A DNA stretch of 64,000 nucleotides from a virus (lineage: Duplodnaviria; Caudoviricetes), in the IMG/VR virus record IMGVR_UViG_3300047159_000056, positions 32,001 through 96,000 of that record; one strand, given 5' to 3'. A program made the translations under genes and the position numbers. Shown piece by piece: positions 3,718-31,426 of this stretch (positions within the stretch are counted from its first letter, which is position 1; the number at the start of each line of letters is the position of its first letter). Under the pieces are notes generated by a model, which was given only the letters and a program-made list of their open reading frames with translations, was not told the origin of the DNA and did not search any database.

Positions 3718-5304
3718 ATGGAAGAGAAAATCTTAATAGAAAATTCAAAATTAGTGATTAAAAAAATTATTAGTGGACCAAATACAAGTGGTTCTACAAA
3801 TTCCCCGGATATTATTGTTAAGCTAGATCTTGACAATATACAGGATATTAGTAGACCTTGTGTTGTGGCAACTTTTAAACATGAGAAAGACGGAACAATT
3901 AGAGACATCCTAAATGCTAGTTCTAAGTTTGCAGAGATTGGAAGTACTGGTATAGAATTTCGCTGTGACTTTGTAGGAGATGAGTTTTGGGTTCTTGAAA
4001 AATCTAAGAAACTAGAAAAGAATCCTCAACAATATTCTAATCATGATATAGCCGTAATAGCAGAAATGATTAAGACACTATACAATCCAAAGAACATAAC
4101 TAAGTGTGAAACCTTAGTCAGAGCCCTTGGAATAGATGACTTAACTGATGCTTTCTATAAGACACCAATGTTCTTTATTAATAGAGCAGATAATTCTTTT
4201 GGAGAAATACTGAAGAATATCCTAGTTGATTCTATTAGTAAAGATGATAAAGAGATTAAGAGAAATAAAACCTTCTTAAATAGAGAAACCTATAGTAGAA
4301 GTAGATATTCTGTTTATCACTTAATGAAAGACATTGTAGAGGATGGCGCCAGTATTATGATTAGCAAAGATCTAACTGGTGAATATAATAAAATCAGTAA
4401 GTCAGGAACACAAGGTTGGAAATTTGCTGCTACCTGGATGAAAGTTATAAACCTCCTAGGTAACAGAGAAAGAGCCAATATGAGTTTTAAATGTTCCTAT
4501 TCTGTTACAATAAAAGTACCGGAGAATAAAAAACTTGGTGTTGCAGCAGATGAGAGAGAACTAAACACAATTATCAACCTGAATATTATAAAGGATGGAT
4601 TGGTAAATATTGATAGCATTGGAATAAAAGGATCTAAAGAATTTATACAGAAACTAAAGAGAAAACATATAGTGGAATTCAATATCTTATATGAGAATGA
4701 AGTCCTGGTTGATCTCAAGAAGCTTCCAATTATTAGTAGATCCGATATTAGAAGACCTAGTATACAATTGCTAAGCGAACTGGTAAAAAATATAGAACTG
4801 TCAAGAATAGCCGCTAAGTTTTATGAATTAACTAAGCCGGCACCTAAGAAGACGGCCAAAGAAAAATACCTGGAAAGTCTTGGTATATATGGTAGCTGGT
4901 ATTTTAAGAAACAACAACCAGCAGTTCCAGCAACATATACTTATAATGCAACAACACTATGCTCGAACAACTCCCTCAAGTCTATTTCAACTGCAGATAT
5001 CTCAAAGTATACCAAAGGAATTAGAACTGCACAAATAAAAACAATATCTAATTTCCTGGATAATCTTTGCAGAATAAATCCAGAAAGGGAATATAAACTC
5101 TGGAGTGAAAAACATGAGGACTTAGTTCAAGATTATAGGAAGTATGTATTTGAGTTGATCCTTGGAAAAAATCTGAAACTTAAAGATATTAGAAAAAATA
5201 AAAATATCAAGATAGAGGGTTTATCCACATATGTTAGAGACTATAGAATAACTAACTATGTCAAGGTAAACTGGAATATAAAGGTTAAATCAATTGAAGT
5301 TTAA
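3718..5304 (+). CDS. hypothetical phage protein (528 aa)
   Basis: Long ORF preceded by ccttaattatg promoter motif and followed by a terminator. Confidence 0.8.
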   Translation: MEEKILIENSKLVIKKIISGPNTSGSTNSPDIIVKLDLDNIQDISRPCVVATFKHEKDGTIRDILNASSKFAEIGSTGIEFRCDFVGDEFWVLEKSKKLEKNPQQYSNHDIAVIAEMIKTLYNPKNITKCETLVRALGIDDLTDAFYKTPMFFINRADNSFGEILKNILVDSISKDDKEIKRNKTFLNRETYSRSRYSVYHLMKDIVEDGASIMISKDLTGEYNKISKSGTQGWKFAATWMKVINLLGNRERANMSFKCSYSVTIKVPENKKLGVAADERELNTIINLNIIKDGLVNIDSIGIKGSKEFIQKLKRKHIVEFNILYENEVLVDLKKLPIISRSDIRRPSIQLLSELVKNIELSRIAAKFYELTKPAPKKTAKEKYLESLGIYGSWYFKKQQPAVPATYTYNATTLCSNNSLKSISTADISKYTKGIRTAQIKTISNFLDNLCRINPEREYKLWSEKHEDLVQDYRKYVFELILGKNLKLKDIRKNKNIKIEGLSTYVRDYRITNYVKVNWNIKVKSIEV

Positions 5305-5359
5305 AAATATAAATAGAAAGTAGGGAGAAAAACTCTACTTTCTTTTCCTTATTCTTGAT

Positions 5360-6259
5360 ATGAAAACATTTAAAGACGTAGAAGTTGGAGATAAAATTTA
5401 TATAGCAATAAAAGGAGTGTTTGGCAGAATTCCTAGTAGATATATAATACAGGATGATCTTATTCTTGAAACAGCAAAAGTGAAAAAAATATTAGATGAC
5501 AAAAGAACACTCATTATCGAACATGGAAAAGAACAGGTAGAAGTAGAAAACCCTATTATCTTAGGACATATTAACTTAAGAAATAGTGTACATTATGCTA
5601 TGCCTTTTGATACTATTATTGATGGCAAGCCTATTTCTTGTAATCTGGTAGCTTGTTCTTGTGCTGAATCATTTATAAAATATGTGATAAATGAAAACAT
5701 AGAATCATTAGCTTCTAGAAGTAGAGATATTATGGACTATACCTTTTCTAAATATAATCCAGTAAAAGAAAATATAGACCAGCTAATAGATACAATGCTA
5801 AAAATACCTAGTTCAAATGATAAGCTAAAAGTAGGAGATACTGTTTATGGATTTCTTACAGTAACAGTATACTCAACAAATGAACCTATACAAAGTCTAA
5901 TTGATGTTGTTCCTGTAAATCTAGAAATAATAGATATCTTGGATGAAAATGGATCAGAATATAAGTTATTGGGAAAAGATAGTAATGGTGCAACTTATGA
6001 AGGAACAGCTTGGAGACCAAATCTAAGTGTATATGGTATGTGTTCTTTTGTTGGATCTGAGCTGGAAAAATTTAATGCTATTTGTATTAATTCGGAAGGG
6101 GCAGTAAAATATCTTAGATGCCTTTTATCAACTAATATACCTGGAGCCTATCAAAGACAATTAGATAGCTTTGATTCTAGGAATGAGATAAGAAAATGCA
6201 TTGAACTAATAGATGGACTAGAAAAATTAAAGGAAAAATATGAGAAGGAAACTATTTAA
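5360..6259 (+). CDS. hypothetical protein, paralog of next gene
   Basis: FKDVEVGDKIY and LKVGDTVYG internal repeat, shared with 6240..7145. Confidence 0.8.
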   Translation: MKTFKDVEVGDKIYIAIKGVFGRIPSRYIIQDDLILETAKVKKILDDKRTLIIEHGKEQVEVENPIILGHINLRNSVHYAMPFDTIIDGKPISCNLVACSCAESFIKYVINENIESLASRSRDIMDYTFSKYNPVKENIDQLIDTMLKIPSSNDKLKVGDTVYGFLTVTVYSTNEPIQSLIDVVPVNLEIIDILDENGSEYKLLGKDSNGATYEGTAWRPNLSVYGMCSFVGSELEKFNAICINSEGAVKYLRCLLSTNIPGAYQRQLDSFDSRNEIRKCIELIDGLEKLKEKYEKETI

Positions 6260-7145
6260 GGACATTAAAGCGGGAGATACTATTTATGCCTCAATCGGTT
6301 GTAAAGAATCATCAAAGTTAGTTGCACTATATAACCTGGAAAGACTTCACTGGAAAATGACAGTTAAAGAGACATGCCCAAATAAATATAGCGACATGAA
6401 AATAAATATAGTTCTAGAATATCCTAAGGAACTAAAAAAAGAAGTTACAATTCTAGACTTATATCAGAAGGATTATACAGCAGATAGACAAGTACTAATG
6501 ACGATAAATAGTGGAAGTAACTTGGATTTTAATATTAGATTCTGCACTGATCCTCATGATTTTGCCAATGAACTATTAAAGACTGAACTAGATGAAACCT
6601 GTGAAGCCTATAAAAAATGGTTAGACGATAAACTGGGATGGCCTATACTTCAAAAATCTATAATAGACAGTTCAATAGATAAATTATTAGCTTTTCCTAG
6701 TAGTGATAAGAAATACTATGACCTAAAAGTTGGAGATACTGTTTATGGAGTTAAGAATGAAGTAATAACAGATGGACATCTTTCTTTAACTGGATATGAA
6801 GAGGTTGAGATAAAAGTAAAATTAATTACAGATAAAATCTTTGAACTAGAATATTTTGACTGTAATACTGAAAGATTAATCTCTAGTTATTTCAAAGCGG
6901 ATGATAGTAATAGATTAGAAGAAATTACAGGTCCAGAAAATACATTCCCTAAATTTTATGATATTAGAAAAGTATATATAAACCCAAAAGATATGATAGG
7001 GAATCTTTTAAAGGATATAAGAGAAGAATTTAGTAGATCATATGTAGCTACACATTTTTATGACTTACAAGAAAAACTCTTAGGATATATGAGCTTAGTT
7101 AGGAAAATAGAAAATGAGATAGATAATTATAATCAGGCAATATGA
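6240..7145 (+). CDS. hypothetical protein, paralog of previous gene
   Basis: FKDIKAGDTIY, ID.LL.FPSS.D, LKVGDTVYG. Confidence 0.8.
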   Translation: MRRKLFKDIKAGDTIYASIGCKESSKLVALYNLERLHWKMTVKETCPNKYSDMKINIVLEYPKELKKEVTILDLYQKDYTADRQVLMTINSGSNLDFNIRFCTDPHDFANELLKTELDETCEAYKKWLDDKLGWPILQKSIIDSSIDKLLAFPSSDKKYYDLKVGDTVYGVKNEVITDGHLSLTGYEEVEIKVKLITDKIFELEYFDCNTERLISSYFKADDSNRLEEITGPENTFPKFYDIRKVYINPKDMIGNLLKDIREEFSRSYVATHFYDLQEKLLGYMSLVRKIENEIDNYNQAI

Positions 7146-10047: not shown

Positions 10048-10193
10048 CGATGTTTCTTTTTACTATATGTTTTTTAGTTGGAGAAGAGGAATCTAATAAT
10101 GGTTCCCTTCTTTTTCCTTCCAAAAACTATATAAAACCCTTATTAATGAAAAGGAAGATAATAATGTCTTTCCTTAATTTAAAAGATAGAAAA

Positions 10194-10301
10194 ATGATTA
10201 AAAAAATTAAAAGATTCTTTTTTACAGCAAAAAAGAACTGTAGAACTGAAAAAGAATTAAGAGAAAACGGGATTTGGGTTAATGACCTGAATCAATTCTA
10301 A
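10194..10301 (+). CDS. small early protein (35 aa)
   Basis: ATG right after promoter/leader hairpin; terminator follows. Confidence 0.55.
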   Translation: MIKKIKRFFFTAKKNCRTEKELRENGIWVNDLNQF

Positions 10302-10400
10302 ATAAGACAGAGGAAATAAAAATCCTCTGTTCTTTTTTTTTCACCTAGAACCCTTATATATGAAAGATAATAGTGTCTTTCGTTAATTTAAAAATAAAAT

Positions 10401-10502
10401 ATGATAGAATTAGTTTTAGCCTACACAGTAGCAGGCGTAGTGTTCTTAATAGTATGGAACACTTTTGTTAATCTATACGACAAAAATATAAAAAATAGAT
10501 AG
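10401..10502 (+). CDS. small membrane peptide (33 aa)
   Basis: MIELVLAYTVAGVVFLIVWNTF..., follows promoter/leader, abuts next ATG. Confidence 0.6.
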   Translation: MIELVLAYTVAGVVFLIVWNTFVNLYDKNIKNR

Positions 10503-10688
10503 ATGGAAGAAAATAAAATTTATGCCTTATTCGAAAATAAGGTGAGCGAGTTTGAATTTGATCTTAGTAAAGAGGAACAAGATCGAATTCTAAAAGAGTT
10601 AGGGATAGATGAAATCTCCCTAATATTCAATAGATACTTCACACAGGAAGGAGTAGAAAAAGTACTAAAAGTGTGGAGAAATAAATAA
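10503..10688 (+). CDS. small early hypothetical protein
   Basis: Coupled to upstream peptide; terminator follows. Confidence 0.7.
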   Translation: MEENKIYALFENKVSEFEFDLSKEEQDRILKELGIDEISLIFNRYFTQEGVEKVLKVWRNK

Positions 10689-10808
10689 AAGATTCTAGGA
10701 CAAGAGATAAAAACTTGCCCTATCTTTTTTCCGGCTAAAAAAGTAATAGGAGCCTTATATATGAAAGGAAGACAATAGTGCCTATCCTTAATTAAAAAAT
10801 AAAAGAAA

Positions 10809-11096
10809 ATGAAAAAGAAAGAAATGACCGACGCCGAAAGAAAGGCGCTGGAGATCAGATGCATCTTGAATAATAATTCAAGAAGAATAGAACTCTTCAA
10901 TTCCTTCATCGAAGGACATATTGAAGATAATGAGATCTATGACAAGCTAACAGAGGCAGAATGCGCCATGTTAGATGCGACAAACGAGATAGTAGGTAAG
11001 GCAAAGACTGACGAAGAATTTGCTGATGAAACATTAAAAAAGTTGGAGGAGAGATCTTTGTGGATCAATCCTATGACAAAAAGAGAAGGGAAGTAA
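10809..11096 (+). CDS. small early hypothetical protein
   Basis: Promoter-leader-ORF-terminator cassette. Confidence 0.75.
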   Translation: MKKKEMTDAERKALEIRCILNNNSRRIELFNSFIEGHIEDNEIYDKLTEAECAMLDATNEIVGKAKTDEEFADETLKKLEERSLWINPMTKREGK

Positions 11097-11195
11097 AAAT
11101 CCCCTTCTTTTTTATTTCCGTCTAGAAAGGTAATGAGTCCCTTATTAATAGAGAGGAGAGCAATAGTGCTATCCTTAATTAAAAATTGAAAAAAA

Positions 11196-11516
11196 ATGAA
11201 AAAAATCGTTAATTTTCAAGTTGACCTTCAACGGTCAAAAGTTGATTCTAGCAGTTTTACTATGTCTGCAAAGAAACAAAAAGCTCCCAATGAGGAGTTT
11301 GTAAAAATTGCAGAGATCAAGGAAAATCCTGATTGTTTGCACGATAGATCATCTTGGCCTTTTACGGCTGAGATTGATGGATTAGGATGCCGATTAATGT
11401 CCGTAAAACCGGCAAAGGACGAAAAGTCTCGGACGTACATTTCTTGGGTTAGAACATATTTGCCCAAGATACTGTGTAAGGTATTTGGGGAATCTATTCA
11501 CATATATAGTGAATAG
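11196..11516 (+). CDS. small early hypothetical protein
   Basis: Promoter-leader-ORF-terminator cassette. Confidence 0.75.
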   Translation: MKKIVNFQVDLQRSKVDSSSFTMSAKKQKAPNEEFVKIAEIKENPDCLHDRSSWPFTAEIDGLGCRLMSVKPAKDEKSRTYISWVRTYLPKILCKVFGESIHIYSE

Positions 11517-11637
11517 TCCAAAGTAAAGGAAGGTGGGAAGAAAAATCCCGCCATTCTTTTTTTCCGTCTAGCTTATTGTTAAAAACCTTATTAGTAGAGA
11601 GGAAGATAATAGTGTCTATCCTTAATTAAAAATTGAA

Positions 11638-11862
11638 ATGAAAATGGAAGAGATTTCAGAAATCCAGGAAAAACTACCTGGAATCATTGAAAAACTCCCG
11701 GAAGGGAAGTTAAAGGGACAGTTTATAAAGCTCAAAAGGAAAGTTGAGAAGGCCGAAAAGGTTGACAAAAGCGAAGGAGCAACATTCGCAAACTTATTGA
11801 GACTTTTATACATATGTTTTATGTATGAATATCTTAGAATAAGACTAGAAGAGGGAGTTTAA
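11638..11862 (+). CDS. small early hypothetical protein
   Basis: Promoter-leader-ORF-terminator cassette. Confidence 0.7.
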   Translation: MKMEEISEIQEKLPGIIEKLPEGKLKGQFIKLKRKVEKAEKVDKSEGATFANLLRLLYICFMYEYLRIRLEEGV

Positions 11863-11928
11863 TCTCCTTCTTTTTTTCAACCTCCTGATTCCTTATATAT
11901 GTTAAAATATATATATACAAAAAGAATT

Positions 11929-12048
11929 ATGGATAACAAAGTAGTAATTAAGACGACAATGCAAAGTGAATTAAGTCGCCAAAATGAAATTCTAGAGTCT
12001 ACTGTGAAGGAGGCTGTAGAAATGGTAAAAGCAAAATTTAAATTTTAA
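11929..12048 (+). CDS. small protein (39 aa, MDNKVVIKTT...)
   Basis: Own ccttatatatg promoter (~11891) and terminator (~12060-12097). Confidence 0.6.
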   Translation: MDNKVVIKTTMQSELSRQNEILESTVKEAVEMVKAKFKF

Positions 12049-12180
12049 TTGTGAAGTGTAAGGAGGTAAGAAATGAAGTCTTGCCTCTTTATTTTTCTTC
12101 CTTCTAGAAATAATATAATATAACCCTTATATATGTAGGGATAGGTAATAGTGCTTTATCCTAATTTAAAAAATAGAAAA

Positions 12181-12400
12181 ATGAAAAAATAAAAACTATT
12201 AGCCTTAAGAAATATAAATATAAGGCTAGAAAAAGAGCTGAAACTCTTAGGAAAAGAAAAAGAATGATGAGATGTGTAAAATCATTGATGGGACTGGGGG
12301 TTAAGGTAGCTATCATGATGATGGGATGCGCCGTTATAGAAAAAATGACGAACGACTTAATAGAGGTGGCAGAAAAATCAAAAACCACTGCTGTTAAATA
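12181..12400 (+). CDS. small basic protein, frameshifted in an A-run (probable sequencing error)
   Basis: Adding one A after ATG gives a 73-aa ORF (MKKIKTISLKK...TTAVK) that fills the cassette. Confidence 0.6.
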
Positions 12401-12507
12401 AATAAATGATAGGGTAGAATTAAGGACAAAAAATTCTACCCCTTTATTTTCGTCTAGAATCCTTATATCTGGATAAGCAATGAAGCTAATCCTTAAAATT
12501 TAAAAAA

Positions 12508-12839
12508 ATGAAAAAGAAACAGAAGAAGGATTCAGGATTGCAGGTATAATTATGCTAGCAGGAATCCAATTAAAAATTGCCTATGATGTAATTATCGGAT
12601 ATGGCAAAAAAGAGCTCAAAAGAAAAAGGGAGCTAATTGAAGAGATTTGTCGGCTGCAGGAAGCAACCGAGAAAAAATCAAAATTGATAGATGAGATCAT
12701 TTATGAAGATCCTATCCTATCAAGGATGAACTTAAATAACCTTGTAGAAAATGAGGTTATAGATCTGGAAAGACTGGCCAGGTTATTTAGGTCAGTTAAT
12801 AAAAACGACGCTAAAAAAGAAGAGGAGGAAAAGAAATGA
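12508..12839 (+). CDS. hypothetical protein; probable true start 12508 with an A-run frameshift
   Basis: Adding one A gives MKKETEEGFRIAGII joined to the 12552 ORF. Confidence 0.65.
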
Positions 12840-13222
12840 AAAAAATTTTTATCAACTTAGCGGAAACAACTATTGATCTCATTAGTGGTGCAACCATTTA
12901 TGAGTCGATAAGACAGCTGAAAAGAGATTTTGATGTCACAAAAGACAGAAGAGATCTCCTAGTAGAAAGAACTGTGGAGATGTACAAGGACAAAGAAGTC
13001 CTAGACACTTCTTTAGATATATTTGATGCTTCTAGAGGACACGAAGAAGCTTACAAGGTAGTGTTTGGTGATGATGGAAACATTGAATCAGTCAAAAAAT
13101 TGTGTAAAGATCTAACTCTGGATAATATAAAACATCCAGAGAATATAGGAAGATATAAATATGAAAAGGCTAACCAAGTCTATATGATTGCCGCAATGGC
13201 AAAGGCCCGGTTAAGTAAGTAG
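12836..13222 (+). CDS. hypothetical protein
   Basis: ATGA-coupled to upstream ORF; terminator follows. Confidence 0.75.
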   Translation: MKKIFINLAETTIDLISGATIYESIRQLKRDFDVTKDRRDLLVERTVEMYKDKEVLDTSLDIFDASRGHEEAYKVVFGDDGNIESVKKLCKDLTLDNIKHPENIGRYKYEKANQVYMIAAMAKARLSK

Positions 13223-13343
13223 TATTTGTAAAGAAAGGTAGAGAATATTAAAAAGTCTCTACCTCTTTTTCCGTTTCAAAAATATATAGGACCCTTATAT
13301 ATGAGAGACAATAATGCTTCTCAGAATTTAAAATAAAAGAAAA

Positions 13344-14593: not shown

Positions 14594-16642
14594 ATGATTA
14601 AAAAAATTATTAATGTTCCTCCCGATATTAGATATATCAGTGATTGGACAGACTTTTCTCAGAATATTGATGAAAAGGATAAAAAATGTATTATTGATAA
14701 GAAGATTCCTGGATGTGGATTTACTGAATGGGTATTAACTAATAATCAAGATGTTATCTTATGTAGTCCAAGAAGAATTCTTTTACAGAATAAAACTGAT
14801 CAACATTTGGGAGAGGTATTTCTTGTGATAAATCTATTTGAAGAAGTAGTAGATTATGGGAAAGATTTAAATAGACCAGCTAAAGGGTCTAGTAAAATTA
14901 AGGTTCCATCTGAAAATGATAATAAAAAGAAAAGTGAATATTTTAAATTATTATCTAAACAAATTTTAAATTACATAGATTTAAGACATGCTGGTGGATT
15001 TCCTGCTAAGATCTTGGTTACATATGATAGTTTTCACCTAGTTAAAGATATACTAACCTTTCAGAATTTTGAATTATTACCAAAATTTCAGGTGGTTGTT
15101 GATGAGTTCCAAAGTCTGCTAGTTGATTCTAAATTCAAAGCTACTACTGAATTAAAATTTATTAGTGATCTTCAACATATAAATAGGGTGTATTATATTA
15201 GTGCTACTCCTATGATGGAAAACTACCTAGACCAAATAGATGAATTTAAAGACCTACCTTATTATGAATTAGATTGGAATGCTCTTCAACCAGGTAGAGT
15301 TGTTAAGCCAAATCTAAAGGTAAGATATGCTAGCTCTATAATAACATCGGCTAAAAAGATAATAAGCGATTATAAAACTGGGAATTTTGAAAAAACCTAT
15401 TTATATAACGAAACTGGTAGTCCTGTTGCTATAGAAAGTAAGGAGGCTGTAATCTATGTAAACTCTGTTAATAATATTTGTAATATAATAAAAAAGTGCG
15501 AACTATTACCAGAGGAGTGTAATATTCTTTGTGCTAAGACTCCTTATAATGATAAAAAAATTTCTAATAAATTGGGAAAAGTATTTAAAATAGGAAAGGT
15601 ACCATTAAAGGGAGAGCCACATAAGATGTTTACATTTTGTACTAGAACTGTCTACTTAGGGGCCGACTTTTATAGTACAAATGCTAGAAGTTTTATCTTA
15701 AGTGATGCTAGTATAGAAACATTAGCAGTAGATATTTCTCTAGACTTACCTCAGATTCTTGGTAGGCAGAGGTTATCAGAAAATCCTTGGAAAAATTCAG
15801 CTACTTTCTATTATAAACCCTTAGCCGCTAATAAGAAAATAACTCAGGATGAATTTAATAATATAATTCAAAAAAAGTATAAAGATACCTTAAATTTAAT
15901 TTCTGGTTATGATTCTGCAAAGTCAGATGAAGTAAGATCAACCCTAATGGATAAGTACAAATTAATTATAGAAACATTTAATTACAAGGATGATTATCTA
16001 GGTTTAAAAGTATTAATTGATAAAATAACTGCTGAAAAACTTTATAGTCCTGTAGTCAATAATCTAGTTATGCTGGCTGAACAGAGAGCTTTTGATATGC
16101 AGCAGATTGATTATGCTGATAGATTTACAGTATTCAATGCTATAAATAGAAATAATATAAATACTGACGATGAAATGAAACAAATTAGTGAGTTTTTTAC
16201 AACTTATAATAGTTTGCCTAGTTTCTTTGAAAAATTAAAATTTTTATGTGAATCTAATTTATCTGGAGTAGTATTGGAACAGGTATTATTACAAATAAAA
16301 GAGCCACATTTTAAAGAATATTATGAAGTTCTTGGACCAAAAAGAATGAGAGAACTAGGATACAATATAACTTTATTTAAGAAGGAATTGAATATAGTTA
16401 CCTTTGATAAAAATAAACTCTATATAGAAATCTATCTTAATTTTAAGGTTGGAGAAAAATATACGAAACCTGAGATAAGAGAGAAATTATCTGAGATTTA
16501 TAATAAGGTAGGATATAATGCTTATCCGAAAGCAACAGACTTAGAAAATTATTTTAATATTAAAAGTATATCTATATATATTAAAGAAAATAATGATCTA
16601 AAAAAATACAATGGGTTTGAAATTTTAAGTGTAAAAAAATAA
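14594..16642 (+). CDS. SF2 (DExD-like) helicase-domain protein, putative replication initiator/origin-binding protein
   Basis: KKIPGCGFT (variant Walker A), VVVDEFQ (II), SAT (III), CTRTVYLGADF (V), QILGRQR (VI); C-terminal extension. Confidence 0.75.
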   Translation: MIKKIINVPPDIRYISDWTDFSQNIDEKDKKCIIDKKIPGCGFTEWVLTNNQDVILCSPRRILLQNKTDQHLGEVFLVINLFEEVVDYGKDLNRPAKGSSKIKVPSENDNKKKSEYFKLLSKQILNYIDLRHAGGFPAKILVTYDSFHLVKDILTFQNFELLPKFQVVVDEFQSLLVDSKFKATTELKFISDLQHINRVYYISATPMMENYLDQIDEFKDLPYYELDWNALQPGRVVKPNLKVRYASSIITSAKKIISDYKTGNFEKTYLYNETGSPVAIESKEAVIYVNSVNNICNIIKKCELLPEECNILCAKTPYNDKKISNKLGKVFKIGKVPLKGEPHKMFTFCTRTVYLGADFYSTNARSFILSDASIETLAVDISLDLPQILGRQRLSENPWKNSATFYYKPLAANKKITQDEFNNIIQKKYKDTLNLISGYDSAKSDEVRSTLMDKYKLIIETFNYKDDYLGLKVLIDKITAEKLYSPVVNNLVMLAEQRAFDMQQIDYADRFTVFNAINRNNINTDDEMKQISEFFTTYNSLPSFFEKLKFLCESNLSGVVLEQVLLQIKEPHFKEYYEVLGPKRMRELGYNITLFKKELNIVTFDKNKLYIEIYLNFKVGEKYTKPEIREKLSEIYNKVGYNAYPKATDLENYFNIKSISIYIKENNDLKKYNGFEILSVKK

Positions 16643-16680: not shown

Positions 16681-17520
16681 ATTCCTTATATATGGAAAAT
16701 TAGAAGTTCCTAAATATTATTTGTTGGTAGAGGAGAAGTCGTGAGATTAGTTCCTCTACTTTTTTAATCATCTTAAATCCTTACTAGTGGAATAGGATTT
16801 ACCATTTCAATCAATTTTAATGAGTAAATAAGGGATAGTTGTGAAACTAGTTCCCCTATTTTTTCGCCCTCTCAAAAACACCTATAATCCTTATATGTGA
16901 AATAAAGAACCATCTTTAATTTTTTGCCCGAAAGGGGCGATTATTTATATTATAGGGGATAGTTGTGAAACTAGTTCCCCTATTTTTTTTTCACCCTCTC
17001 AAAAGCACCTATAATCCTTATATGTGAGTAATATGAATATCGTATCACAATTTTATACAGAGTACAGGGGAAAGCGGATCGTGATGATTAGCTTTCCTAT
17101 TTTTTTTCAACCCTCCTAATTCCTTATAAGTGAAATTAAGAAGAGATTCAATTCATGTTTTTTAATTTGTCCCGAAAAGGGAGTTATTATTTTTTAGGGA
17201 GAACAGATCGAGATGATTAGTTCTCCTATTTTTTTTAACCTTCCTAAAACACCTTAAATCCTTATATGTGAAAGTAAAAGAGATTTCATATTGTTTGCCC
17301 ATTAACGGGTGAATTTTAATTAATAATATTAATAATCTCAGTAGGAGATAGTCGTGATGATTAGTTCTCCTATTTTTTTTTTCGTCCCCCTTAGAAATAC
17401 TTTAAATCCTTATATGTGACAGAGATGTCATTCTCCATAATAAATAACTTCCAAGAGAGGAAGTGGAAAATTAAATGTTTTTTAGGGGATAGTTGTGAAA
17501 CTAGTTCCCCTATTTTTTTT
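16681..17520 (+). ncRNA. array of 7 putative small RNA genes (promoter + variable 5' segment + conserved 3' hairpin/U-tract)
   Basis: Units begin ~16681, 16776, 16886, 17013, 17119, 17257 and 17405 with ccttAnnnnTG, contain no ORF, and end in a GG.GA..RTYG(T/A)GA(T)RAYTAG.T..CCT hairpin + T-run. Confidence 0.7.
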
Positions 17521-17563
17521 CGTCCTTAGATCCTTACTAGTGTGAGAATAAAAATAAAAGTTT

Positions 17564-17743
17564 ATGAAGAGAGTAGAAATAGTGCTTGAGTCATTTTTAG
17601 CAATTGACATAGTTTTAATAGTTCTTAGATTATTTAGTGTAATTAGTTATCCTCCAGTCTGGGTACTCCTATTACCTATCTTAGTACCACTAGTAATTAT
17701 GGGTTTAATGATGTTTTATATATTTATTAGATTAGTAAAATGA
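17564..17743 (+). CDS. small two-TM membrane protein (59 aa)
   Basis: LIVLRLFSVISYPPVWVLLLPIL, similar to 31220..31426; follows a ccttactagtg promoter. Confidence 0.65.
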   Translation: MKRVEIVLESFLAIDIVLIVLRLFSVISYPPVWVLLLPILVPLVIMGLMMFYIFIRLVK

Positions 17744-18924
17744 GTAAGGTAGAAGAATTTTTATTAGGTAAGGATAGTTTAGATTTAGCTCAGCAGAAAG
17801 AGTTAAAAGGTTTCCTGCAGAATGAGTCTAATTATCCTAGGAAATTAGTCTTAGATTTTATTATAAAGTCTGCTATGGCTAGTGTATCTGTAGTACCTGG
17901 GGAAGGTTCTAGTGAATTAATTGTCTTAGATAAGGAGATAACTGAGCTAAATGGTCTTGGTGACTTAGCTAATATGGTTATTTCTGGTTTTCCTGATAAG
18001 GTTGAACTAGATAATTTTCTTATTAAGTTTAGGAATATTACTAGTCATCTGGATAAGATTAGGAGAGGATTTAGTGGAAGGGATGCTACTAAGAGGGTTT
18101 GCACTGTTGATATTGGTGGTAAACGGATTATAACAGAGCAGGTTCTTCTTATGAATTCTAGCATGTTTGGCACTAAGAATCTTCTCTTAATTATAGATAT
18201 GCAACTAGATTTTATTAGTGGTAGTCTAGCTGTTCCTGGTGGTAGAGATGCTGAGTCTAATCTAACAAAGTGGATAGACATTAATAGGAATAGGATTGAC
18301 AGTATCTTATTATCTAGGGATGATCATTACCCTTCTCATATAGGGATGACTTGTTCTTGGTTAGGGAAAGATGGAAATATAGTAGAGCCATTTATTACAA
18401 TTAGTTCTAGTCAGGTAAAGGATGGTACTTATACACCAAGATTTATGAGTAAGGAGGGTGCTATATCTTACTTAGAGGAAATAGAGAAGAGGGGATATAC
18501 ACATACTACTTGGCCTTTACATTGCATCAGGGGATCTAGGGGTCAGCAATTTAGTGAGGACTTATTACGATCTCTTAGGTGGTGGTCAATGTCTCATAAA
18601 GGGGAGCATTACTTAATTCTTGACAAGGGAGAGAAGGATGATTCTGAGATGTACAGTATTTTCTCTTACTTAAATGGTTATGATCCTTCTTATACAAAAA
18701 ATTGTTTAGATAATATAAGTTCTGGCAATTTTGATAAGATATTTATTGCCGGCTTAGCTAAGGATTATTGTGTAGCTAATAGTGTAAAGGATCTCTTAAG
18801 TGATTCTAGATTTGACGGAAAGCTTGTATTCTTAGATTCCTGTATGGCGTCTATTAATACAGAGTCCCCTAGTCTTAGCATTTATCTTGATGCTATAAAG
18901 AATCATTCAGATCAGATGGCATAG
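17740..18924 (+). CDS. pncA: nicotinamidase (isochorismatase family) with ~140-aa N-terminal extension
   Basis: LLIIDMQLDF..GSLAVPG, D.H..H, WPLHC, KG..EMYS, AGLAKDYCV. Confidence 0.85.
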   Translation: MSKVEEFLLGKDSLDLAQQKELKGFLQNESNYPRKLVLDFIIKSAMASVSVVPGEGSSELIVLDKEITELNGLGDLANMVISGFPDKVELDNFLIKFRNITSHLDKIRRGFSGRDATKRVCTVDIGGKRIITEQVLLMNSSMFGTKNLLLIIDMQLDFISGSLAVPGGRDAESNLTKWIDINRNRIDSILLSRDDHYPSHIGMTCSWLGKDGNIVEPFITISSSQVKDGTYTPRFMSKEGAISYLEEIEKRGYTHTTWPLHCIRGSRGQQFSEDLLRSLRWWSMSHKGEHYLILDKGEKDDSEMYSIFSYLNGYDPSYTKNCLDNISSGNFDKIFIAGLAKDYCVANSVKDLLSDSRFDGKLVFLDSCMASINTESPSLSIYLDAIKNHSDQMA

Positions 18925-18981
18925 AATCCTTACTAGTGGAAGCTAATAGTGGTTTCCATAATATCCAAAAAATTAGTAAAG

Positions 18982-19225: not shown

Positions 19226-19304
19226 CCTTATATATGTTAAATATGTTAATGTTTTTTTTTGAAAACGGGAGGAGAGCAGGTCGTGAGATTAGCTCTTCTT
19301 TTTT
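19226..19304 (+). ncRNA. orphan copy of the small-RNA unit
   Basis: ccttatatatg + short AT-rich body + gagagcaggtcgtgagattagctctt hairpin and T-run; same loop motif as the array. Confidence 0.6.
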
Positions 19305-25622: not shown

Positions 25623-26559
25623 TTACAGTCTTAATAGATTTGGGAACCTAATAACTGTATATGATATTGGGGGAGAGAGTTATAAGCTAGAATTATACTC
25701 TCCCCATTTCCCCACTAAGTCATCAGATATTATACCAGTTTATGAGTCAAAGGCAGATTTCTTTGTCCCAGGTAGAATATATAGTGTTGGTCTTAGTAGA
25801 TATGAGTTTACCAAGAGAATATATATAAAAGAAAATTATAGTTCCTTAGTATTTTTAGATATAGATCAAATAGATACAGACAAAAAGATTTACCTTGGGG
25901 AAGAAGATTGTAAGAAATATGGTATACCCAGTAATGGAAAGTACTTAGTATTATCACAAAACTTAGGTTGGGTAGATTCGGGTCTTAGTTTTGATCCTAC
26001 TACAGCAAACCTAGTAGATTATCCTGGGTCTAGTAGTGAAATAAAAGAAATGACACTCTTATTACAGGGCTTTACTAGATATGAAAAGGATCCTAGTATA
26101 ATTAGAACTCCAAGTGGTTCATTAATACCACAAGAGATTTTAATGTTTACTATGTCCCTGAGTCTAGGACATTCTATTCCGAGTATCTTAGGTTATCATG
26201 GTTTTAAGAAGGAAGAAAGATTAACTTATTCTTTCTGTAATTCTGATAACGAATCTATAGTAGAACTAGGTGGAGGAATAAAGATCCTAGTTAGTTTTAA
26301 AGATAAAGAAGAACAAGGAATTTCTAGAATATCGCTGAATGGATTAACAGCTAGTGAATTATTTGAGATTACCTGGGATGATTACTTGGGAAAAGCAGAT
26401 ATAGTTCATACAATATCTAGGACAAAGCCTCTTAGAATATTAGGGGCTTTTATAAATAAAGAGGGTCGTTATTGGGTTAATCCTGAGATATCTAGAACAA
26501 TCTTAGACTCACCAAATACTCTAGAACTGTGTGATTCTACTAAGTGGGTAGGAATATGA
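25606..26559 (+). CDS. hypothetical protein
   Basis: 317-aa ORF in operon. Confidence 0.75.
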   Translation: MDSSISYSLNRFGNLITVYDIGGESYKLELYSPHFPTKSSDIIPVYESKADFFVPGRIYSVGLSRYEFTKRIYIKENYSSLVFLDIDQIDTDKKIYLGEEDCKKYGIPSNGKYLVLSQNLGWVDSGLSFDPTTANLVDYPGSSSEIKEMTLLLQGFTRYEKDPSIIRTPSGSLIPQEILMFTMSLSLGHSIPSILGYHGFKKEERLTYSFCNSDNESIVELGGGIKILVSFKDKEEQGISRISLNGLTASELFEITWDDYLGKADIVHTISRTKPLRILGAFINKEGRYWVNPEISRTILDSPNTLELCDSTKWVGI

Positions 26560-31223: not shown

Positions 31224-31426
31224 AAATTAAGAATGAATCAGGAAAAATTACTATTACATTTAGTTTTAAGCCTCTTCTCTTATCACTGATCTTACTTGTC
31301 TTAAGATTGACAGGTGTAATAGGTTGGTCTTATTGGTGGATATTTTCTCCAATAATTGCTCAGTCTGCTTATATATTTCTTGTTTACTTAATAGTAGTAA
31401 TAGTGTGGACGATAAAGAAGAGTTAA
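31220..31426 (+). CDS. small two-TM membrane protein
   Basis: LLVLRLTGVIGWSYWWIFSPI motif common in phage membrane proteins. Confidence 0.75.
   Translation: MKIKNESGKITITFSFKPLLLSLILLVLRLTGVIGWSYWWIFSPIIAQSAYIFLVYLIVVIVWTIKKS

Follow-up and report, generated by a model that had tools for sequence, protein, structure and literature searches.

A large phage carries seven tandem units (U1-U7; 16683-17517) between a helicase-like gene and a 59-aa open reading frame (ORF), each composed of a promoter motif, a variable body and a hairpin followed by a T-run. Judged from the sequence, we consider it probable (about 0.6) that these units encode base-pairing small RNAs (sRNAs) with which the phage silences host mRNAs at their start region. 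The case for pairing centres on U5, whose 5′ part (the seed) is complementary to the start of trpA in a bacterial genome, G773. Unless marked otherwise, positions refer to the window, meaning the whole stretch of 64,000 nucleotides that was analysed, which corresponds to bases 32001-96000 of a 207,396-bp virus record (G000).

Seven promoter-body-terminator units in tandem

The array of seven promoter-body-terminator units was confirmed. Its components and neighbours are as follows.

14594..16642, plus strand: helicase-like gene (682 aa), upstream of the array; syntenic marker
16683..16764, plus strand: U1; promoter 16683-16694, short body without CAT, GNGA-capped hairpin, T-run
16778..16863, plus strand: U2; promoter 16778-16789, CAT at 16803, 3′ hairpin 16826-16863
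16888..16987, plus strand: U3; promoter, seed with CAT at 16911, small internal hairpin, AU linker, 3′ hairpin 16950-16987
17015..17104, plus strand: U4; promoter, body with CAC at 17046, 3′ hairpin 17066-17104
17121..17233, plus strand: U5; promoter 17121-17132, seed, internal hairpin, linker, 3′ hairpin 17195-17233
17133..17168, plus strand: U5 seed, spanning from just past the promoter to the first hairpin; complementary to the trpA start of G773
17259..17377, plus strand: U6; promoter, seed with CAT at 17287, internal hairpin, AU linker, 3′ hairpin 17339-17377
17407..17517, plus strand: U7; promoter, seed with CAT at 17436, internal hairpin, 3′ hairpin 17480-17517
17531..17743, plus strand: eighth promoter (17531-17542) with an ordinary 59-aa membrane-type ORF without family match; the array ends here
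17740..18924, plus strand: nicotinamidase-like gene, downstream of the array; syntenic marker
19226..19303, plus strand: dispersed stand-alone unit of the same family as the array units, without CAT

Every unit has the layout of an sRNA gene, with its own promoter and an intrinsic terminator around an ORF-less unit of 50-150 nt. The promoter motif is common to the small promoter-ORF-terminator gene cassettes of the phage. The bodies contain a variable, AU-rich 5′ part and often a small internal hairpin; every seed of the array differs, and some seeds fold weakly on themselves. A search of Rfam, including the C4 model and the CRISPR repeat families, placed the units near the gathering score of no family. 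In contigs assembled from low-depth RNA runs, cover of the array was patchy with many loose ends, and RNA ends, strand and level are not readable from such contigs.

The helicase-like gene is a neighbour of the array rather than a demonstrated partner, and the majority of its copies in relatives occur without an array. At L009:6637-7300, a truncated duplicate of the start of this gene lies just upstream of the intact gene.

A GNGA hairpin shared among related phages

In a terminator census of the 207 kb, a GNGA-loop apex was present in 11/11 ORF-less units, compared with none of about 45 gene-ending terminators, whose loops are AU-rich. One of the 11 is preceded by the end of an insertion sequence in place of a promoter, and a twelfth GNGA unit was found in the record beyond those of this first census. 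The loop reads G-N-G-A(-N) in all but two of 27 copies. The stems change on both sides, with two-sided changes in 7/8 consensus pairs, and U7 shows one compensatory pair change between strains. A covariance model located 2-19 copies of the hairpin in 9/12 related phage records, and the apex persists, with covariation, even between phages whose proteins are only about 50% identical. In most of the tabulated cases, the hairpin comes after a promoter and a short body without an ORF, and about a third have no nearby promoter. A closer relative carries three different units at the syntenic site and three more elsewhere. Assignment of the apex to box C/D or K-loop motifs was ruled out; there is no box D, and the box C word is absent from half of the loops.

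These findings bear on the idea that the units are empty promoter-terminator cassettes, left behind by ORF loss and without RNA function. While the phage is rich in promoter-ORF-terminator cassettes that use the same promoter and recombine, these end in AU-loop terminators and never in the GNGA apex, and the retention of that apex with covariation among such divergent phages also argues against decay. We regard this origin as very unlikely.

Strains differ by the gain and loss of complete units. U6 is missing as a complete unit from three strain contigs and U7 is duplicated in one, a single duplication that could be a repeat assembly error. The seeds are nearly invariant across strain contigs, and variation falls in the spacers and linkers; in a U3 strain variant, the 19-nt core around CAT is kept. 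The sole hint of covariation between seed and target is the U7 variant C17433T, which is synonymous in the mirrored frame or wobble-compatible; the U5 seed is invariant. A variable front joined to a fixed 3′ hairpin, together with gain and loss of whole units, supports the guide-plus-scaffold design proposed in the initial annotation of this DNA. Architecture, conservation and modularity of the array are in this respect visible in the sequence itself.

Four more dispersed family units lie outside the window, at G000 200835-200945 (L258:4845-4947), 206124-206200, 26420-26505 (minus strand) and 206070-206108. Further ORF-less promoter-terminator units without the GNGA apex, one of them long and GC-rich, occur at window position -728 (G000 31273-31340) and at G000 198812. 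In the gut jumbo phages G514 and G007 (L266, L269, L275 and L277), the unit bodies are strongly self-complementary and the 3′ hairpin is identical; one of these bodies has possible alternative pairings. In G742 and G771 of the Parabacteroides group (L357:1501-1536 and L358), an intergenic terminator is 90% like the stem and T-run of U6, with the GNGA loop absent. Pattern scans of IMG/VR and JGI for similar arrays returned nothing or chance matches.

Start-region likeness and the match of U5 to trpA

The initial annotation had read the bodies as antisense to translation-start regions, pointing to a CAT or CAC shortly after the promoter. The underlying observations are correct: CAT begins 14 (U2), 12 (U3), 22 (U5), 17 (U6) and 18 nt (U7, with a second at 11) after the promoter TG, U4 has CAC at 20 nt, and U1 has no CAT. 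Moreover, five of the six reversed bodies have A at position -3, the exception being U2 with G. CAT by itself, in 5/7 units against 3.3 expected by shuffling, is near chance. Scoring of the reversed bodies with a start-region weight matrix placed the array above shuffles, with p<2e-4 for phage-trained weights and p=0.0025 for host-trained weights, both post hoc; U1 and U4 were not significant singly. The proposed resemblance to Bacteroidota starts was thus upheld for the array and did not extend to 29 other independent family members, the units of relatives (p=0.23; CAT in 13 against 10.4 expected). Because these 29 members fail the test, the start-like signal belongs to the long units of the array and not to the whole family. 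Relatives share the hairpin scaffold, but most of their units are without the anti-start signature.

As the initial annotation stated, no body matches a gene start in the window, and there is no exact match longer than 14 nt elsewhere in the 207 kb. Duplex energies against 541 of the phage's own starts in the 207 kb, which includes an apparent structural module, were at shuffle level except for two marginal, heavily bulged scores. Both host and phage mRNAs had been put forward as targets; these data support a target outside the 207 kb of phage DNA and identify none among the phage's own starts within it.

The same data weigh on a reading in which the RNAs are antisense to own genes in the remaining roughly 133 kb, or to competing phages or mobile elements, in the manner of the c4 antisense RNA of P1/P7. 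The latter is a small phage RNA that occludes the ribosome-binding region of the phage's own antirepressor mRNA. The record is about 60% complete, because the same phage is also present as a 340,045-bp contig, about 133 kb of which lies beyond the 207 kb analysed, and start-like mirrors would fit any Bacteroidota-type gene. However, own starts scored at shuffle level, two seeds of a 93%-complete relative found no target in their own genome, and searches of phages, plasmids and IMG/VR gave no relevant seed match. The array also differs from c4 in having no own-genome target in the 207 kb and no match to the Rfam C4 model. Targets of this kind appear distinctly improbable.

Host searches covered about 840 Bacteroidales genomes in total. 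In the many-genome BLAST, the top 2-3 candidates per genome were scored and a short exact word was needed, so imperfect targets can be missed. One set comprised 183 genomes, the family of a genome with a Parabacteroides-like 16S. The strongest match of all searches joins window positions 17131-17168 to C8:33446-33483 of G773 (34/38 identical; BLAST E 5.3e-7 per genome). Here the U5 seed (17133-17168) is complementary at 32/36 nt to -12..+24 of trpA, antisense and in register across the ATG, and the match spans exactly the interval from the U5 RNA start to the first hairpin. The matched gene is the last of the trp operon and scores above the curated cut-off for trpA. The initial annotation had cautioned that the perfect complement of U5 meets a stop at codon 3. 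This is so, and a second stop occurs at codon 7; both are single mismatches relative to the Arg3 and Leu7 codons conserved in TrpA. In register, the seed scores 32/36 on trpA of G773 compared with 13.4±3.1 on other starts, and 30 other trpA genes of the family reach 13-25 of 36. Against shuffles, the seed scored 29/33 where the maximum in 300 shuffles was 23/33. The calculated energy of the U5-trpA duplex is -31 kcal/mol.

Per-start tail estimates for this match range from 8e-12 to 1.7e-7, depending on model and background. Applied to six seeds and about 2.5 million starts, the models predict 1e-4 to about 0.5 chance matches, while the smallest background (60 starts) gives an unreliable value of about 2.5. 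Extrapolation of the empirical identity histogram yields roughly 0.03-0.1 such matches anywhere, and about 1/10 of the inspected seed matches fell in register on a true start; by our own estimate, the chance of the trpA match is therefore about 0.3-1%. Because about 840 genomes were searched, coincidence stays a conceivable origin.

The GC content of G773 is 53%, compared with about 30% in the phage. G773 could be related to the host, could itself be one host among several, or could match by coincidence. No CRISPR spacer linking G773 to the phage was found in 1.59 Mb (about half) of this genome, and a 28-nt match between the two was ruled out as a spacer link, since it sits in a coding region and not in a CRISPR array. 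In the same amount of G773 sequence (1.59 Mb), U2, U3, U4, U6 and U7 scored at shuffle level, and these five seeds gave no strong BLAST match in the whole assembly. U6 was also tried as a mirror of trpG, and failed. The dispersed unit at 19226..19303 has a weak match to -23..+7 of a G773 gene (BLAST E 0.32; 40/40 shuffles beaten), which from its N-terminus looks like a cytidylyltransferase.

Elsewhere, an exact scan of all species genomes with the U7 mirror produced 26 matches scattered across phyla, none of them a Bacteroidota gene start. The top matches in 401 Bacteroidales genomes were mid-gene or non-coding, and a 20-nt exact match of U2 in G141 was rejected as a target, being mid-gene. 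Among 250 Bacteroides-genus genomes there were seven matches, one of them at a start (SurE-like, 19/20, U7), which was judged to be chance; four seeds from a gut relative had no start-site target in 250 genomes of that genus. Two small genera gave no seed match, and the L009 units found nothing in five Parabacteroides-group genomes. Targets for seeds other than U5 are lacking probably because the real host is absent from the genomes searched.

The proposal of anti-start silencing RNAs thus gains one whole-seed, in-register match, that of U5 to trpA, and no target for U2, U3, U4, U6 or U7; U5 exceeds shuffled controls at trpA, with the five other seeds at shuffle level in G773. The suggestion that defence genes are targeted finds no backing, as the only candidate target is biosynthetic. 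Why a phage would silence trpA is a matter of guesswork, one guess being that it saves precursors for the phage.

The main rival is a decoy or sponge. In this reading the active element would be the GNGA hairpin, which would titrate an RNA-binding protein, a nuclease or a defence sensor of the host; the AU-rich fronts would serve as spacers, and the CAT triplets and trpA match would be coincidental. It would account for the hairpin being the only clade-wide constant and for the bodies of relatives, most of which are without CAT, some strongly self-folded, and one, in a gut phage, varying by 5′-end indels; high copy number would suit a dose effect. Mere spacers are harder to reconcile with seeds that stay nearly invariant across strain contigs while spacers and linkers change, and coincidence with a trpA match that covers precisely the RNA from its start to the first hairpin. 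On balance we find a decoy role unlikely.

We favour silencing of host mRNAs by base pairing and propose a model in which each unit would yield a separately transcribed RNA of 65-105 nt, made by host RNA polymerase early in infection. In the long units, the first 25-36 nt at the 5′ end would base-pair with particular host mRNAs over their A-rich leader and start codon and so block ribosome loading, with trpA of a Parabacteroides-like bacterium as the candidate target of U5. The 3′ hairpin may stabilise or protect the RNA and might bind a host or phage protein. The short units that lack CAT may have their pairing sites in other parts of mRNAs or serve as decoys. Recombination between near-identical flanks could shuffle the units. 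Transcription, pairing and repression are what we infer from these patterns, as are the identity of the host and any effector. As regards RbpB binding, which goes with the FopS family, no RRM gene was found in five phage records, and the control was detected in Bacteroides thetaiotaomicron.

A more far-reaching version is a reprogrammable library. Pieces of host starts, 25-36 nt long, would be captured in reverse into promoter-scaffold cassettes, recombination would exchange these cassettes with a change of host, and silencing would fall to a dedicated protein that recognises the GNGA hairpin. This version is doubtful; if true, the phage would possess its own CRISPR-like array of guides directed against host translation.

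Host, known systems and neighbouring elements

The phage was recovered in bioreactor sludge and wastewater runs, and is a jumbo phage of roughly 340 kb, probably with Bacteroidales as host. Its helicase-like protein shares 47-56% identity with those of other large phages from gut samples, many of them 360-400 kb. From size and habitat, these relatives are probably Jug phages of Bacteroides/Phocaeicola (PMC12880540), in whose description small RNAs are unmentioned. It is because of these probable Jug relatives that a Bacteroidales host is likely. The hairpin family reaches abundant gut jumbo phages, which from size and gut origin are probably the Jug group.

The closest parallels in working are GibS and FopS of Bacteroides thetaiotaomicron, which repress by pairing at start regions (PMC11697453). 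Like the proposed RNAs, these are multi-copy, 65-70 nt long, with their own promoter and terminator and, in a phylum whose leaders are A-rich, a 5′ seed that pairs beside the start codon and blocks initiation. While FopS copies share the R1 seed at the 5′ end and differ downstream, the array units share the 3′ hairpin and all seeds differ, a layout that sets FopS apart. Unlike GibS and FopS, the array units are phage-borne and tandem, and the U5 pairing is long (32/36).

PreS of lambda, which targets dnaN, and VpdS of VP882 are, like the proposed RNAs, phage-encoded and base-pair with host mRNA, but they are single, Hfq-dependent RNAs of temperate Proteobacteria phages (PMC12197685). The same review of phage sRNAs mentions neither arrays nor Bacteroidota phages (PMC12197685). 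Our literature searches found no phage array of such small RNAs. To our knowledge, Bacteroidota lack Hfq, and the array, if it works as proposed, would point to sRNA function without it.

Viral sgRNAs and RNA anti-CRISPRs are also compact phage RNAs, whose 5′ guide is joined to a 3′ scaffold with a terminator at its end (10.64898/2026.06.01.729453; no Bacteroidota cases are named there). The units, with their variable 5′ part and fixed 3′ structure, could on this precedent be guides or mimics for a host CRISPR effector. However, they have a single terminator hairpin without a repeat:anti-repeat duplex or tracr-like tail, match no CRISPR repeat family at threshold in Rfam, and vary freely in stem sequence, and the candidate target is an mRNA start and not a cas9 promoter. 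A role of this sort is barely credible. By analogy, the best reading is that the array resembles trans-acting base-pairing sRNAs in its working, yet fits no described family.

Given that the described host-mRNA-targeting phage sRNAs are single RNAs of temperate Proteobacteria phages, a modular tandem set in which many long seeds share one scaffold, carried by a lytic-type Bacteroidales jumbo phage, would, if true, constitute a new route of host takeover. Such a set would also provide a natural scaffold for knocking down genes in Bacteroidota, and its seeds could be used as host-prediction tags. The U5-trpA pair makes the antisense idea directly testable.

Several other features of the phage were noted. 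A reverse transcriptase gene (415 aa) beside an Avd-like gene (122 aa, below cut-off) forms a diversity-generating retroelement at 44450-46428 (minus strand), and in one relative the same pair adjoins the helicase-like gene. At G000 4690-6469 (minus strand), a gene pair resembles IS607 resolvase and TnpB, judged by eye. A 5′ leader hairpin directly after the promoter is common to small monocistronic genes (10139-13340 and 18928-18960). Finally, about 25 small genes of the late region (G000 135205-179177, minus strand) encode nearly the same N-terminal motif, in which M, I and basic residues are followed by F-S; the motif resembles a signal for packaging or targeting.
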